A DNA stretch of 40,006 bases from positions 1 to 40,006 of IMG/VR virus record IMGVR_UViG_2568526473_000002, one strand, 5' to 3'. The stretch is from a virus (lineage: Duplodnaviria > Heunggongvirae > Uroviricota > Caudoviricetes). This document shows positions 2,490 through 7,087 of this stretch, in pieces. How positions within the stretch are numbered: the stretch's first letter is position 1; each line of letters starts with the position of its first letter. The translations under genes and the position numbers were made by a program. The notes beneath the pieces are model-generated. The model did not search any database and had not been told where the DNA came from. It saw nothing but the letters and a program-made list of their open reading frames with translations.

Positions 2490-2650
2490 ACCGCCTCCCG
2501 TTTATTATTTATCTTCTCAGCCAGCCGCTGTGCTTTCAGTGGATTTCTGATAACAGAAAGGCCGGGAAATACCCAGCCTCGCTTTGTAACGGAGTAGACG
2601 AAAGTGATCGCGCCTACGCGGATATTATCGTGAGGATGCGTCATCGCCAT
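2462..2650 (-). CDS. Small hypothetical protein (62 aa, lambda orf60a position)
   Basis: Short ORF abutting the exo start; position only. Confidence 0.3.
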
Positions 2651-3321
2651 TGCTCCCCAAATACAAAACCAATTTCAGCCAGTGCCTCGTCCATTTTTTC
2701 GATGAACTCCGGCACCATCTCGTCAAAACTCGCCATGTACTTTTCATTCCGCTCAATCACGACATAATGCAGGCCTTCACGCTTCATGCGCGGGTCATAG
2801 TTGGCAAAGTACCAGGCATCTTTTCGCGTCACCCACATGCTGTACTGCACCTGGGCCATGTAAGCCGATTTTATTGCCTCGAAACCACCGAGCCGGAACT
2901 TCATGAAATCCCGGGAGGTAAACGGGCATTTCAGTTCAAGGCCGTTGCCGTCACTGCATAAACCATCGGGAGAGCAGGCGGTGCGCATACTTTCGTCGCG
3001 ATAGATGATCGGGGATTCAGTAACATTCACGCCGGAAGTGAATTCAAACAGGGTTCTGGCGTCATTCTCGTACTGTTTTCCCCAGGCCAGCGCCTTAGCA
3101 TTAACTTCCGGAGCCACACCGGTGCAAACCTCAGCCAGCAGGGTGTGGAAGTAGGACATTTTCATGTCAGGCCACTTCTTTCCTGAGCGGAGCTTTGCTA
3201 TCACGTTGTGAACTTCTGAAGCGGTGATGACGCCGAGCCGTAATTTGTGCCATGCATCATCCCCCTGTTCGACAGCTCTCACGTCGATCCCGGTACGCTG
3301 CAGGATAATGTCCGGTGTCAT
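2641..3321 (-). CDS. exo: Lambda exonuclease (Red-alpha), 226 aa
   Basis: Near-identical over full length to lambda Exo as recalled ([43 protein letters not shown]...). Confidence 0.95.
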
Positions 3322-4103
3322 GCTGCCACCTTCTGCTCAGTGGCTTTCTGTTTCAGGAATCCAAGAACTTTCACTGCTTCGTCCTGTGTCAGTTCTGACG
3401 ATGCGCGAATGTCGCGGCGAAATATCTGGGAACAGAGCGGCAATAAGTCGTCATCCCATGTTTTATCCAGGGCGATCAGCAGAGTGTTAATCTCCTGCAT
3501 GGTTTCATCGTTAACCGGAGTGATGTCGCGTTCTGGCTGACGTTCTGCAGTGTATGCGGTATTTTCGACAATGCGCTCGGCTTCATCCTTGTCATAGATA
3601 CCAGCAAATCCGAAGGCCAGACGGGCACACTGAATCATGGCTTTATGCCGCAACATTCGTTTGGGATGCGACTGCCACGGTCCGGTGATTTCTCTGCCTT
3701 CGCGGGTTTTGAATGGTTCGCGGCGGCATTCATCCATCCATTCGGTAACGCAGATCGGATGATTACGGTCCTTGCGGTAAATCCGGCATGTACAGGATTC
3801 ATTGTCCTGCTCAAAGTCCATGCCATCAAACTGCTGGTTTTCATTGATGATGCGGGACCAGCCATCAACGCCCACCACCGGAACGATGCCGTTCTGCTTA
3901 TCAGGGAAGGCGTAAATTTCTTTCGTCCACGGATTAAGGCCGTATTGGTTGGCGACGATCAGCAATGCGATGAACTGCGCATCGCTGGCATCGCCTTTAA
4001 ATGCTGTCTGGCGAAGAGTGGTGATCAGTTCCTGTGGGTCGACAGAATCCATGCCGACACGTTCAGCCAGCTTCCCTGCCAGCGTTGCGAGTGCTGTACT
4101 CAT
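3318..4103 (-). CDS. bet: Lambda Bet (Red-beta) single-strand annealing protein, 261 aa
   Basis: Near-identical to lambda Bet as recalled ([66 protein letters not shown]...). Confidence 0.95.
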
Positions 4104-4108
4104 CCGTT

Positions 4109-4405
4109 TTATACCTCTGAATCAATATCAACCTGGTGGTGAGCAATGATTTCAACCATGTACCGGATGTGTTCTGCCATGCGCTCCTGAAACTCAACAT
4201 TGTCATCAAACGCACGGGTAATGGCTTTTTTGCTGGCCCCGTGGCGTTGCAAATGATCGATGCATAGCGATTCAAACAGGTGCTGGGGCAGGCCTTTTTC
4301 CATGTCGTCTGCCAGTTCTGCCTCTTTCTCTTCACGGGCGATCTGCTGGTAGTGACGCGCCCAGCTCTGAGCCTCAAGACGATCCTGAATGTAATAAGCG
4401 TTCAT
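4109..4405 (-). CDS. gam: Gam (RecBCD inhibitor), short 98-aa form
   Basis: Matches the C-terminal 98 aa of lambda Gam ([21 protein letters not shown]...[10 protein letters not shown]); the upstream in-frame extension diverges from lambda. Confidence 0.88.
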
Positions 4406-4481
4406 GGCTGAACTCCTGAAAATGGCTGTGAAAATATCGCCCGCGAAATGCCAGGCTGATTAGGAAAACAGGAAAGGGGGG

Positions 4482-4772
4482 TTAGTGATTCAGGCCGTTA
4501 CCGCGTCCGTCGAGAAAAACTTCTACGAGCAAATCACGGGTATAAGTGCACTCGATGCCGCGATGCAGATAAAGCCGTCCGCGTAAATTAGCTGATGCAG
4601 TCCAGGTACCATCTTTGTGTTTGACCAGCATTCCTGGCATGACCGCGCCGCGATTAACGGTCTGCGTTCCGTAATGTTGATGAACCATAAAAACTCCTGC
4701 CCGTAAGCTGGGCTGCTGAACATATAGAGACTTCTGCGCGTATTCAGGCGGTGGATGGCCGCCGGTTGTCAT
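4482..4772 (-). CDS. Hypothetical protein (96 aa) in the N position downstream of PL
   Basis: Only sizeable ORF between OL and gam on the leftward strand; no arginine-rich N-like motif, no recognised domain. Confidence 0.3.
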   Translation of the reverse strand: MTTGGHPPPEYAQKSLYVQQPSLRAGVFMVHQHYGTQTVNRGAVMPGMLVKHKDGTWTASANLRGRLYLHRGIECTYTRDLLVEVFLDGRGNGLNH

Positions 4773-4975
4773 AACTAAGCCGCCTCGTTGAAGCGACTAA
4801 GGTATGAAATGTTGAGTTAATTTCAGCTGGTCACACCGACGTTCACGCGTCCGTTTCACCCCTCGCACTCCCCGAAGCCTGCTGAAATTCAAACTGCGGA
4901 TCTAAGCGGTCATCGCAACGGTGAAGCGGGTGAACTGGTGGTTGCCCCATCGCTGTGTCGTTGCGATGGAATGAT

Positions 4976-5053
4976 AATAGCTATTGCTATTGGGTATATC
5001 AATACGTATTGTTATTGCTTGATGCGATTGGTTATTAAATCATTGATAGCAAA
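4976..5053. promoter_or_regulatory. Putative OL/PL operator-promoter cluster
   Basis: Repeated TTGCTAT/ATAGCAA-containing motifs (tagctattgctattggg, attgttattgctt, tgatagcaaa) mirroring the cI-cro intergenic operators; located where lambda has OL. Confidence 0.45.
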
Positions 5054-5140: not shown

Positions 5141-5170
5141 GGGGAAGAAAACCCGGCGCGGTGGCCGGGT
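5141..5170 (-). terminator. Rho-independent terminator ending the cI operon
   Basis: 7-bp GC stem acccggc/gccgggt (5151-5157 / 5164-5170) with 6-nt loop, followed on the minus strand by a U-rich tract (complement of ggggaagaaaa); abuts the stop of ORF 5170..5562. Confidence 0.55.
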
Positions 5171-5562
5171 TATGGTTTTTTCATGTATAAATTTACGAGC
5201 AAAGTTATGACTGGCATTGCAACGGATAAGAGAAGAATTCCGAGCATCCAAGCCTTTAAATTACCTGTTTTTACTTCGACAAAATCCTTACTTGCTTTAT
5301 GAGATAACTTTTCGTCAATATCTACAAGTTTTTGAAGTATCGTAGAAACATCAGTTTTTATAGAAGAGGTAATTTTTGTCAGCTCTCTCACATCCGCGCG
5401 AGTTTCCGCTAAGTTTATCTTGATGTTTTCAACGTCGGCTTCAAGTTTTGCAACTCTGACCTCGAGCATGCCATTCCCTCCACCATCACTACCACCGTTT
5501 TTATGGTTATTTCTATCATCCCCCTCAGGGAAAAGAGGTGCAATATTATCAAAAGGATTCAT
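5170..5562 (-). CDS. Coiled-coil protein with single C-terminal transmembrane helix (130 aa); RexB-position gene
   Basis: Hydrophobic C-terminus AWMLGILLLSVAMPVITLLVNLY; heptad-like central region; AT-rich codon usage; last gene of the cI operon. Confidence 0.6.
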   Translation of the reverse strand: MNPFDNIAPLFPEGDDRNNHKNGGSDGGGNGMLEVRVAKLEADVENIKINLAETRADVRELTKITSSIKTDVSTILQKLVDIDEKLSHKASKDFVEVKTGNLKAWMLGILLLSVAMPVITLLVNLYMKKP

Positions 5563-5582
5563 TTATTCTGGCCCGGATGTCA

Positions 5583-5981
5583 TTATTGGTCAACTTCGTT
5601 ATTCTTTAGCCAGTAGAAAACAAGCCATGCCAAATAACTTGTAACGAATCCGCAATGTTTGCATATCACTCTAAACTCATAATCCATTAAGTTTTCTTTT
5701 GTCATATTCCATTGCTCATTACTATGTGGAGCATCAACCTTGTAAAGCCTTAAAACAGTATATTTTTCAATATTATTAAGATCTGTTTTCCCTTCCTTGC
5801 TGTTGAATTTATCCCAATGCCAGTCTTGCACTGCTATAAGTTCAGCCTTACCGCAAGATAAGCAGTTATGATTTGCCCCAACATGCTTTAAATATGCAGA
5901 AAATTGAGCGGTTGTAATATTTTTCACTTTATTATGAAAATCAGATACTTCATCACTTACAGATTTGTCATCATTACTCAT
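5583..5981 (-). CDS. Zinc-ribbon protein with two CxxC pairs (132 aa); RexA-position gene
   Basis: CLSCGK and CKHCGF motifs; 20-nt gap to the downstream gene and 75-nt gap after cI, consistent with an operon; AT-rich. Confidence 0.6.
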   Translation of the reverse strand: MSNDDKSVSDEVSDFHNKVKNITTAQFSAYLKHVGANHNCLSCGKAELIAVQDWHWDKFNSKEGKTDLNNIEKYTVLRLYKVDAPHSNEQWNMTKENLMDYEFRVICKHCGFVTSYLAWLVFYWLKNNEVDQ

Positions 5982-6056
5982 TTTTGGTGCCTTATATCAA
6001 GTGATGCGTGGAGTTAATCAGGGTGCAGGTATTCATGAATATAAATAGCAAGATTT

Positions 6057-6749
6057 TTATCCATGCTTCCTGTACGTCTGCGGCATGCTCCCGATGACTT
6101 TCCCGAAGATGAACACTCGGTTCATCTCGTCTTTCTCGATCGGGTCCCACGGTGAGTAGCTCTTGTTATCAGAGATAACCAGCAGCTTATCCTTCATCAT
6201 TTGCAGACGTTTTACATGAGCGGTTTCGTCGTAGAGGAACGCATAAATCCCATCGCCGTCGAACGATTTGACGCTGATATCGACGAACAGCAGGTCACCT
6301 GGTTCGATCGTTCCTGACATGCTGTCGCCACGCACGTTAATGATGCGGATGTTTTCTGCTTTGCGGCCATCAAACATGTGACGCGCATCATCATGGGAGT
6401 ACTCAACCGATCGCAAAACTTCAACGAACTCACGGTTAATGACGCCTGGCCCTGCACTTACTTCCATATCAAGAACGTCAATCTTGAAGTATTTGGAAGA
6501 GCAGGTCGCCGGTTTTCCTGGCTGAACGCCATTATCCCTCATAGGGCCTATGCCTGAGGAAAGCCATTCAGTGCGAACCCCAAGTGCATTAGCGATTTCG
6601 ACAATTCTTGTAGATCCGCGTGCATTGCCGCTTGTCAGTCTCCAGATTGTGGGTTGAGCTACACCAGACGCCTTTGCAAGAGCGCCTTGAGACATTCCAG
6701 ATTGTTCCATCGCTAGGTTTAAGCGATCAGCAAGAGTTTCTTTTTTCAT
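6057..6749 (-). CDS. cI: CI-type prophage repressor (HTH plus LexA-like S24 autopeptidase domain)
   Basis: N-terminal HTH (MSQGALAKASGVAQPTIWRL); C-terminal GDSMSG Ser nucleophile and VKRL Lys of the S24 family; start taken at ATG 6749 (MKKETL), not the TTG at 6785. Confidence 0.88.
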   Translation of the reverse strand: MKKETLADRLNLAMEQSGMSQGALAKASGVAQPTIWRLTSGNARGSTRIVEIANALGVRTEWLSSGIGPMRDNGVQPGKPATCSSKYFKIDVLDMEVSAGPGVINREFVEVLRSVEYSHDDARHMFDGRKAENIRIINVRGDSMSGTIEPGDLLFVDISVKSFDGDGIYAFLYDETAHVKRLQMMKDKLLVISDNKSYSPWDPIEKDEMNRVFIFGKVIGSMPQTYRKHG

Positions 6750-6789
6750 AAGTTTTAATTTATACGCTTGCGTATCGATGGTCAAAACA

Positions 6790-6850
6790 CGTTTTGCTAT
6801 TGCTATGGTTAATACGCATTGCTATTATTTGTTCGTTGCAATACCAATAG
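6790..6850. promoter_or_regulatory. Putative OR operators with PRM/PR between cI and cro
   Basis: Divergent cI/cro intergenic region with repeated TTGCTAT motifs (ttttgctattgctatgg, cattgctatta, cgttgcaatac). Confidence 0.5.
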
Positions 6851-6859
6851 GAATTGATA

Positions 6860-7087
6860 ATGACAAATCAAACCATTCAACTCGCAATCAGTATTACAGG
6901 TAGTCAAAAACGACTGGCAGATCTATGCGGTGTAGCCCAACCCACTGTTTGGCGTTGGCTACACGGTGGCGGAATTGATGCCCGCTATGTAATGAAAATT
7001 GTCTCAGCCACTGGTGGAAAGATTAAACCAGCAGATATTCGTCCCGACCTCGCACCATTGTTTAACGCGAGTAATTCTGCCGCCTAA
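6860..7087 (+). CDS. cro: Cro-like HTH regulator
   Basis: Small HTH protein (LADLCGVAQPTVWRWL) divergent from cI; start taken at ATG 6860. Confidence 0.7.
   Translation: MTNQTIQLAISITGSQKRLADLCGVAQPTVWRWLHGGGIDARYVMKIVSATGGKIKPADIRPDLAPLFNASNSAA

Follow-up and report, generated by a model that had tools for sequence, protein, structure and literature searches.

The question raised by this locus is what two small genes are doing directly behind the repressor gene of a lambdoid prophage, at the site where phage lambda carries rexA and rexB. The genes lie in IMG/VR record IMGVR_UViG_2568526473_000002, of which positions 1 to 40,006 were analysed (a lambdoid prophage of 40,006 nt, referred to here as the window). 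They are termed A (5981..5583, minus strand) and B (5562..5170, minus strand) and are open reading frames for proteins of 132 and 130 amino acids, respectively. Our preferred reading, to which we assign a probability of roughly 45%, is that by analogy with known prophage systems the pair is an exclusion or abortive-infection module that is expressed in the lysogen and acts against superinfecting phages. Genomic context and protein architecture suggest such a defence role, in which A would be the 'sensor' and B the 'effector'. The feature itself is real, precisely delimited and uncharacterised, and its two proteins are unrelated to any described system.

The initial annotation had assigned the pair to the rexA-rexB slot of the immunity region, and this placement holds. 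A and B lie between cI and the left operator and promoter (OL/PL), are co-oriented with cI and are closed off by the terminator of the operon. Open reading frames and the scans for repeats, promoters and terminators agree on the order OL/PL - terminator - B - A - cI - OR - cro that had been proposed; it is confirmed by the operator repeats, a PL-like promoter, the terminator hairpin and the lack of a terminator between cI and A. The AT-richness of the two co-oriented genes was also borne out, with a GC content of 0.34–0.39 in the cassette as compared with ~0.47–0.53 in the flanks. The intrinsic terminator of the cI-A-B transcript (5144..5171, minus strand) starts its stem inside the stop codon of B and folds as AACCCGGC-cacc..-GCCGGGUU followed by UUCUU (dG −14.5 kcal/mol, z −3.2). 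The equivalent site in VT1-Sakai carries the annotation 'terminator for pRM transcript'. At the other end, a spacer of 75 nt (5982..6056, minus strand) with an AAGG Shine-Dalgarno-like sequence ahead of the A start separates cI from A, and a terminator scan of this interval returned no terminator-like site. The repressor gene is presumed to be the upstream gene of an operon with A and B, which would be co-transcribed with it from the PRM promoter.

The promoter scan gave no promoter of the pair's own above chance, with four promoter-like sites in the region as against 5.6 expected from shuffles. A sigma-70-like site in the last codons of A, shortly ahead of B (5593..5565, minus strand; TTGACC-17-CAGAAT, 9/12), was considered as an internal promoter for B. 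Its position recalls the PLIT promoter of lambda, which lies inside rexA. The site was rejected as not exceeding the shuffled expectation and provides no evidence for such a promoter, because promoter-like sites are not commoner here than in the shuffles.

The boundaries of the cassette were defined by alignment with four sister phages (PhiR5_1, PhiR47_2, PhiR68_2 and Perceval). This alignment is continuous on both flanks and breaks at 6056–6059, at the cI stop codon, and at 5169–5180, at the B stop codon and the terminator stem. The separate acquisition that had been suspected from base composition is thereby supported: homology stops at the exact edges of the cassette, and the sister phages have a different two-gene cargo there. 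Their cargoes are a HipA_2 kinase with a DUF3037 protein, 'GevT' with an ASCH protein, and a soluble protein of ~340 aa with a multi-transmembrane protein of 149–168 aa; the pairs HipA/HipD and GevT/GevA are annotated as toxin and antitoxin. By the same alignment the terminator belongs to the conserved flank and not to the cargo, sister-phage homology resuming within 5169–5180. Published work (PMC8585504, citing Degnan 2007) already treats the interval between cI and N as a mosaic hotspot, with rexAB and bstA among its contents. Judged from these sequence comparisons, A-B is foreign cargo, a horizontally acquired accessory module.

The third of these sister-phage pairs was seen in PhiR68_2 (locus L004, 2261–3716) and in Perceval (L005, 2267–3817). 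Its smaller protein has several hydrophobic segments and neither protein matched Pfam or PADLOC; with its Rex-like layout the pair is another unannotated candidate.

The phage backbone is common and the cassette is rare. Of 5,426 complete E. coli genomes, ~2,210–2,220 have the OL-side flank and the cI family, and 10 have the A-B cassette. In 10 E. coli genomes RefSeq annotates both coding sequences, each as 'hypothetical protein'. Among 50,697 phage records searched with megablast and blastn none had the cassette, and the conserved flank alone was matched. For one of the 10 E. coli occurrences, cassette, cI and OL flank lie on a record classed as a plasmid (NZ_AP023208.1, 70,209 bp, E. coli TUM18781; positions 41187–43197), which may represent a phage-plasmid, a prophage that is excised or replicating, or an error of assembly.

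Protein A had been described as a soluble protein of 132 aa with the cysteine pairs CLSCGK and CKHCGF, which agrees with the open reading frame. It is predicted to consist of N-terminal helices and a zinc-ribbon-like core with four cysteines (C40, C43, C107, C110), the two CxxC knuckles being separated by a poorly predicted, variable insert. F27, A36, C40, C43, C107, C110, G111 and W124 are invariant in 12 homologues, and the presence of the four cysteines among these residues suggests that the core is zinc-ribbon-like. Fold searches against the PDB and BFVD returned no significant neighbour for A, the closest, non-significant ones being ribbons of the TFIIS and NrdR type. A is a rare protein: 13 relatives at E≤0.001 were retrieved when 1.84 billion representatives were scanned exhaustively with HMMER, a profile search gave 19 clusters, all 'hypothetical', and tblastn against the 50,697 phage records gave nothing useful at E<0.01; the A-type gene of Salmonella phage 29485 was noticed solely through its B neighbour. 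In PHROGs, A matches family 4293 (6e-35), with the listed function 'unknown'.

The description of B as a 130-aa coiled-coil protein with a single C-terminal transmembrane (TM) segment was likewise confirmed by an AlphaFold2 (AF2) model, a helix with a hydrophobic end. In this model residues 1–29 are disordered, residues 30–127 form a single helix and the last ~23 residues are hydrophobic; the TM segment covers residues ~104–126 (5185..5253, minus strand) and has just 'KKP' beyond it. In sequence, B consists of a variable N-terminal peptide (N-peptide), a run of glycines (Gly-run), the near-invariant motif MLE.RVAKLEADVENIK, the long coiled-coil helix and the C-terminal TM segment. Its homologues form 87 clusters in the Enterobacterales (Enterobacter, Klebsiella, Citrobacter, Serratia, Yersinia, Salmonella and Rahnella). 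Conservation begins at the Gly-run (~residue 28), the first ~27 residues differing almost fully between proteins. G28, G29, M32, E34 and R36–A42 are invariant in the family, and W105 and the pattern 'AMPVI...NLY(L/M)KKP' are conserved in the TM region. The coiled-coil/TM core is 70–90% identical across genera, and the N-peptide hypervariable. B matches PHROGs 3556 and 12602, listed function 'unknown'. The possibility that B is the phage's own holin was rejected: a separate Q-dependent holin, endolysin and Rz are encoded at 17104–18260, and B is therefore not needed for lysis.

Both A and B are real coding genes under purifying selection. The proportions of nonsynonymous (pN) and synonymous (pS) differences were 0.195 and 0.70 between A and a 67%-identical homologue, and 0.14 and 0.90 between the C-terminal part of B and its counterpart in L014; synonymous sites are near saturation in both comparisons.

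The pairing of the two genes is conserved. An A-type gene followed by a B-type gene was found in 10 of 10 lineages with readable context, down to an A identity of 21–30%, and the homologous pairs usually overlap by 4–11 nt. The partners of A have a common architecture with a variable N-peptide, a Gly-run, the motif 'LE.R(V/I)..LE', a coiled coil and a C-terminal TM segment. The pairs of L006–9, L022 and L030/31 stand downstream of the repressor in lambdoid or Rac-like prophages. Those of L023–25, L026 and L029 stand downstream of the integrase, with a C-type repressor gene ahead of int in L023 and L029 and with P2/186-like replication genes in L024 and L029. The L027/28 pair is at a prophage edge, and the pairs of Salmonella phage 29485 and Serratia L033 are inserted between the major tail and tape-measure genes. 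These sites are lysogen-expressed places or places typical of inserted accessory genes (morons). In L030 (5377–5931) and L031 (5377–5907) the TM segment of the partner is followed by a periplasmic tail of 16–20 Pro-Ala repeats, the copy number differing between the two strains; this tail reaches the periplasm, unlike window B.

The coiled-coil/TM core of B is also preceded by proteins unrelated to A. One of these, termed X-type, is a beta-rich protein of 138–146 aa encoded in Enterobacter, Citrobacter and Yersinia after four different repressors, always just downstream of the prophage repressor gene and just upstream of a B homologue (L010 4578–4994; L014 3567–4004; L015 3564–4001; L034 3559–3999). 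One and the same X-B cassette stands behind three distinct repressor alleles in Yersinia, where it lies upstream of N. X-type proteins gave no match in Pfam or PADLOC. In HK544 a protein of 93 aa precedes the B-type gene, and in a P22-like phage a protein of 94 aa precedes the B-type gene downstream of mnt, where P22 has sieA.

The N-peptide of B changes with the partner. In the window it contains L10-F11-P12-E13 (codons at 5524..5535, minus strand), which corresponds to the '(L/P/D)-F-P-x' motif found a few residues before the Gly-run in 8 of the 10 A-associated partners; the dipeptide 'FP' is present in the N-peptide of merely 6 of the 87 B homologues. The partner encoded in L006 (100 aa) shares with window B just the N-peptide (NPFDNI.PLFP...GG.GDGG), coiled coil and TM segment being different, and the A gene of L006 is 67% identical to window A. 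A blind prediction held, in that P0081 (…GDFPRHRGGGG) was found to be preceded by an A-type gene; P0074, with FP far from the Gly-run, has an X-type neighbour. On the simplest reading, the N-peptide is where the upstream protein docks. The window cassette would then have arisen by recombination, an A-type gene with its cognate peptide having been linked to the common B core.

A candidate internal start (5467..5481, minus strand) was identified within B. The Gly codons make up a GGAGG (5481–5477) which is followed, after a spacer of 7 nt, by the ATG of the invariant Met32 (5469–5467). The equivalent ATG has a GGAGG 5–10 nt ahead of it in 12 of 14 diverged B-type genes; when the Gly codons were permuted within each gene the mean was 6.2, and 12 was reached in 0.02% of the trials. 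Synonymous sites are saturated between most of these 14 genes. Twelve of the 87 database clusters are annotated as starting at the Met32 equivalent. At the full-length start of B there is hardly any Shine-Dalgarno sequence, or none, and initiation there probably relies on coupling with A. Two B products are suggested by this arrangement, one of 130 aa with the docking peptide and one of 99 aa without the N-peptide. Nested starts give regulator/effector pairs in lambda S107/S105 and in sieB/esc.

The statement of the initial annotation that neither protein is recognisable as Rex or as any named defence family was upheld, there being no match to RexA/RexB, SieA, PADLOC, Pfam or NCBIfam. It had suggested profile and structure searches and defence annotators as a check, and PADLOC, PDB and fold searches gave no significant match. 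Searching the PDB with profiles built from the alignments of A and of B returned nothing, and Pfam and NCBIfam nothing significant for either protein; matches to toxin-antitoxin families were absent from Pfam, NCBIfam and PADLOC. When 19 B-type proteins were run against Pfam, mostly generic coiled-coil noise was obtained. In the literature no paper on the A-B pair, on ECs2991/2992 or on HK544 gp40/41 was found, and nothing relevant on GevA/GevT, HipD or the PhiR phages.

According to the exclusion or abortive-infection reading, A and B would be read through from the repressor promoter in the lysogen. The C-terminal helix of B would be placed in the inner membrane, with the coiled coil and the N-terminal peptide in the cytoplasm, and A, as specificity or sensor subunit, would dock on the 'LFPE'-containing peptide at the N-terminus of B. 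On meeting a phage-derived cue, A would cause the coiled-coil/TM assembly of B to change state, and the switched assembly would compromise the membrane and lead to Rex-like abortive infection. The 99-aa B starting at Met32 is without the docking peptide and might co-assemble with full-length B; in this way the short isoform could set or restrain activity. We infer A-B binding, the oligomeric state of B, the anti-phage function and the membrane effect.

Several points weigh against this reading. No homologue of A or B has an assigned or tested function, and genes in the cI-terminator slot are not always defence genes. PADLOC-DB v2.0 gave no match for A and coiled-coil noise only for B (PbeC 0.0026, LmuB 0.021). 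A shows no recognisable sensor, enzymatic, nuclease or other catalytic signature in Pfam and fold searches, and its AF2 model, which has beta strands after each CxxC knuckle, is of moderate confidence (pLDDT, the predicted local distance difference test, 66). B has no demonstrated pore-forming feature; it exposes ~3 residues to the periplasm and has essentially no periplasmic part, and matches of B-type proteins to XhlA, holin and hemolysin families are weak. A and B are separated in the window by a gap of 20 nt, unlike the overlapping genes of the homologues. Co-transcription with cI is deduced from the lack of a terminator between cI and A, and the internal-start statistic is optimistic because the sequences are related.

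The same architecture could serve superinfection exclusion at the entry step, B tethering A at the cytoplasmic face of the inner membrane so that the complex catches ejected proteins or DNA on its way in, or obstructs the injection conduit, in the manner of P22 SieA, HK97 gp15, T4 Imm or the membrane-bound SNIPE nuclease. The B-type pair in the sieA slot of the P22-like phage points in this direction, as do the A-B pairs inserted in tail modules, which is where HK97 gp15-like exclusion genes lie. Membrane tethering would fit a small zinc-ribbon protein that possibly binds nucleic acid, and SNIPE is a precedent for membrane-localised defence at the injection site (bioRxiv 10.1101/2025.11.03.685801). 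Nevertheless, with ~3 residues of B facing the periplasm, no similarity to SieA and no nuclease or other catalytic signature in A, we consider exclusion at entry unlikely. We are similarly reserved about a toxin-antitoxin or addiction pair that stabilises the prophage, with B as membrane toxin, A as antitoxin and any anti-phage effect secondary; here the upstream, translationally coupled A would sequester the N-peptide of B. Gene order and the overlaps in the homologues do resemble toxin-antitoxin operons, the slot holds the annotated pairs HipA/HipD and GevT/GevA in sister phages, and B-types resemble small membrane-active proteins in their weak holin, XhlA and hemolysin matches. This is set against the lack of any toxin-antitoxin family match and of a promoter of the pair's own above chance. 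Furthermore, at least three unrelated families are found upstream as partners of B, whose variable part is read as a docking peptide and not as a toxin core; this looks more like specificity subunits that can be exchanged than like cognate antitoxins.

Two further explanations do without defence. In one, which we regard as quite improbable, the pair effects a lysogenic conversion unrelated to phages, as a membrane factor that alters the host envelope, stress tolerance or host interaction. The prophage does carry other host-directed cargo, an inverse-autotransporter adhesin and an esterase, and one B-type relative passes the threshold of the CCDC90-like/DUF1640 family, whose members are membrane scaffolds with no known defence role (PMC4786415). 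However, a hypervariable, partner-specific peptide and partner exchange point to an arms-race interaction and not to housekeeping, and the slots occupied are those known for exclusion genes. In the other, A-B is a phage-intrinsic regulator of the lysogeny-lysis switch, of lysis timing or of induction. Dual-start architecture is typical of holin/antiholin genes, and weak similarities to XhlA (XhlA-like proteins assist lysis), holins and anti-holins were seen. In lambda, RexA biases the switch. A role of RexA and RexB in the lysogenic-to-lytic transition is documented (bioRxiv 10.1101/2021.04.19.439022). A regulator that is dispensable and rare (10 of ~2,200 genomes with the phage backbone), that sister phages replace with unrelated cargo and that moves between unrelated phage types would be odd in a phage with a complete lysis cassette elsewhere, and we give this explanation very little credence.

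If A-B does exclude phages, as the preferred reading holds, it would be a new defence family missed by PADLOC, Pfam and NCBIfam. Its design would then be readable: a conserved membrane effector served by specificity subunits that can be exchanged, a short docking peptide from which the partner can be foretold, and a nested second start, maybe for self-control. Questions raised by RexAB, such as how sensor and effector talk to each other and how the prophage avoids killing itself, would become testable in a much smaller system. We see it as a doubtful extension that A-B belongs to a widespread modular class of prophage immunity devices that has yet to be described, in which a common tail-anchored, probably oligomeric, two-isoform B is combined with interchangeable small cytosolic specificity proteins. 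It is just as tentative that these would include the zinc-ribbon A-type, the beta-rich X-type and others, plugging in via the hypervariable N-terminal docking peptide, and that the class would be carried at the ends of lysogenic operons in lambdoid, P22-like and P2/186-like phages. Beyond the initial annotation, the analysis contributes a family-level picture of a pairing conserved far outside the lambdoid phages, exchangeable partners, a putative docking peptide and a probable nested start, and makes of an isolated oddity a modular system open to testing. In a very common E. coli prophage backbone (~40% of complete genomes), the cI-terminator interval is moreover a cargo slot with precise bounds, suited to systematic mining.

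The remainder of the window is laid out as follows. The integrase gene (1–1164) is followed by exo, bet, gam and kil (2641–4772, minus strand) and by the OL/PL region (4974..5021, minus strand), in which repeat and promoter scans identified operator-like repeats common with OR and a PL-like promoter directed toward kil-gam-bet-exo (5002..4974, minus strand, 10/12 match). The repeats at 4975–5021 match those at 6794–6866 (families D1 and I3). In contrast to lambda the phage has no N gene: no N open reading frame is present between 4772 and 5170 of the window, and PL leads straight into kil-gam-bet-exo. The PL leader (4773–4972, minus strand, ~200 nt) contains two inverted repeats (4819–4830/4878–4889 and 4911–4920/4959–4968) and its fold is unremarkable (z −2.0). 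An Rfam scan of the window found no family.

The cI-type repressor gene (6057..6749, minus strand; HTH_3 and Peptidase_S24, Pfam 1e-17 and 1e-6; RefSeq coding sequence) starts, according to RefSeq, at the ATG at 6749 and not at the TTG at 6785. It is divergent from genes for a YdaS-type Cro and a YdaT-type CII (Pfam), and PMC9986795 gives YdaT a CII-equivalent role. The OR region (6757..6866) holds PRM-like and PR-like promoters and the operator-like repeats at 6794–6866 (D1, D6, I3, I7). The PR-like promoter is at 6800..6828 (plus strand) and the PRM-like promoter at 6785..6757 (minus strand). Only 8 nt separate the end of the latter's −10 hexamer from the cI ATG at 6749, so that the repressor mRNA may have little or no leader, like the lambda cI mRNA made from PRM.

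To the right of the immunity region lie the O/P replication genes, Q (16105–16794), and the holin, endolysin and Rz genes (17104–18260), with the structural genes after them. A second AT-rich cargo block stands after replication gene P, at the ren/nin position. It consists of an inverse autotransporter of 1184 aa, an intimin/invasin-like adhesin (9622–13176, plus strand; IAT_beta 4e-101, Big_1/invasin repeats), and a convergent gene for a BD-FAE/alpha-beta-hydrolase esterase of 347 aa (13213–14256, minus strand). An otherwise near-identical prophage of E. coli LR-50 has different genes at the 9622–14256 position.

When compared with known systems, the B-type family is architecturally closest to the CCDC90-like/DUF1640 (PF07798) and XhlA (PF10779) coiled-coil membrane proteins, which like B have a cytoplasmic coiled-coil stalk ending in a C-terminal TM segment; neither family has an assigned role in phage exclusion. 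Two of the 19 B-type proteins match PF07798, and one of them, from L026, scores 34.5 and so passes the gathering score of 33.5; for window B the search gave no match to PF07798 at E≤0.1. The DUF1640 beta-layer motif is [aliphatic]-A-T-K-[polar]-[D/E] (PMC4786415). This 'ATKxD' motif is clear in the short-type partners (FATKSD in L026, LATKSE in L027, FPTKSD in L023), whereas the corresponding region of window B, HKASKDF, merely approximates the consensus. An XhlA match was obtained for L022 (3.6e-5) and none for window B; the highest score among the relatives is 24.3 bits, where the cut-off is 34.7, and gene B is in the immunity operon and not in a lysis cassette. Window B fits neither the PF07798 nor the XhlA model and was therefore not filed there.

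P22 SieA/SieB and lambda SieB (with Esc) are prophage membrane proteins that are expressed in the lysogen and exclude other phages. The B-type pair replaces sieA downstream of mnt in the P22-like phage, and the nested start proposed for B recalls sieB, which yields Esc as a second product from an in-frame internal start. The Sie proteins act singly, whereas A-B is a conserved pair, and homology to SieA was rejected (hhalign probability 0.7%). BstA of BTP1 is a single large DNA-associated protein with no homology to A or B; its gene lies downstream of the prophage repressor gene, presumably under the repressor promoter, and has a Rho-independent terminator at its end (PMC8585504), a genomic logic that A-B shares.

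Closer in position are HK544 gp41/gp40 and VT1-Sakai ECs2991/ECs2992 (H0053), uncharacterised genes of the cI-N interval. Their second gene encodes the B coiled-coil/TM module (41% identity over residues 33–129, E 2e-17) and lies in the true rexAB slot, with the annotated pRM terminator, OL/PL and N downstream. The upstream partner in HK544 (93 aa) is unrelated to A, and the B-type protein, at 183 aa, differs from window B in its larger N-terminal region and in having no Gly-run.

The rexA and rexB genes of lambda likewise lie between cI and OL/PL, oriented as A and B are, on a transcript closed by the operon terminator, and have the same two-gene layout of a soluble and then a membrane protein. 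RexAB, which excludes T4 rII and other phages through loss of membrane potential, is lysogen-expressed accessory cargo, to which A-B is likened by position. The proteins themselves differ. A has 132 aa and a predicted zinc ribbon, RexA 279 aa; window B has a single C-terminal TM segment after a helix of ~70 residues, whereas RexB (144 aa) is polytopic, with multiple TM segments. Homology of A to RexA (BLASTP E 0.12 over 37 residues; hhalign probability 0.6%) and of B to RexB (BLASTP E 0.34 over 21 residues) was tested and rejected. As both tests failed, A-B is not a Rex system; its resemblance to RexAB is one of position and layout only, and hence an analogy and not homology.

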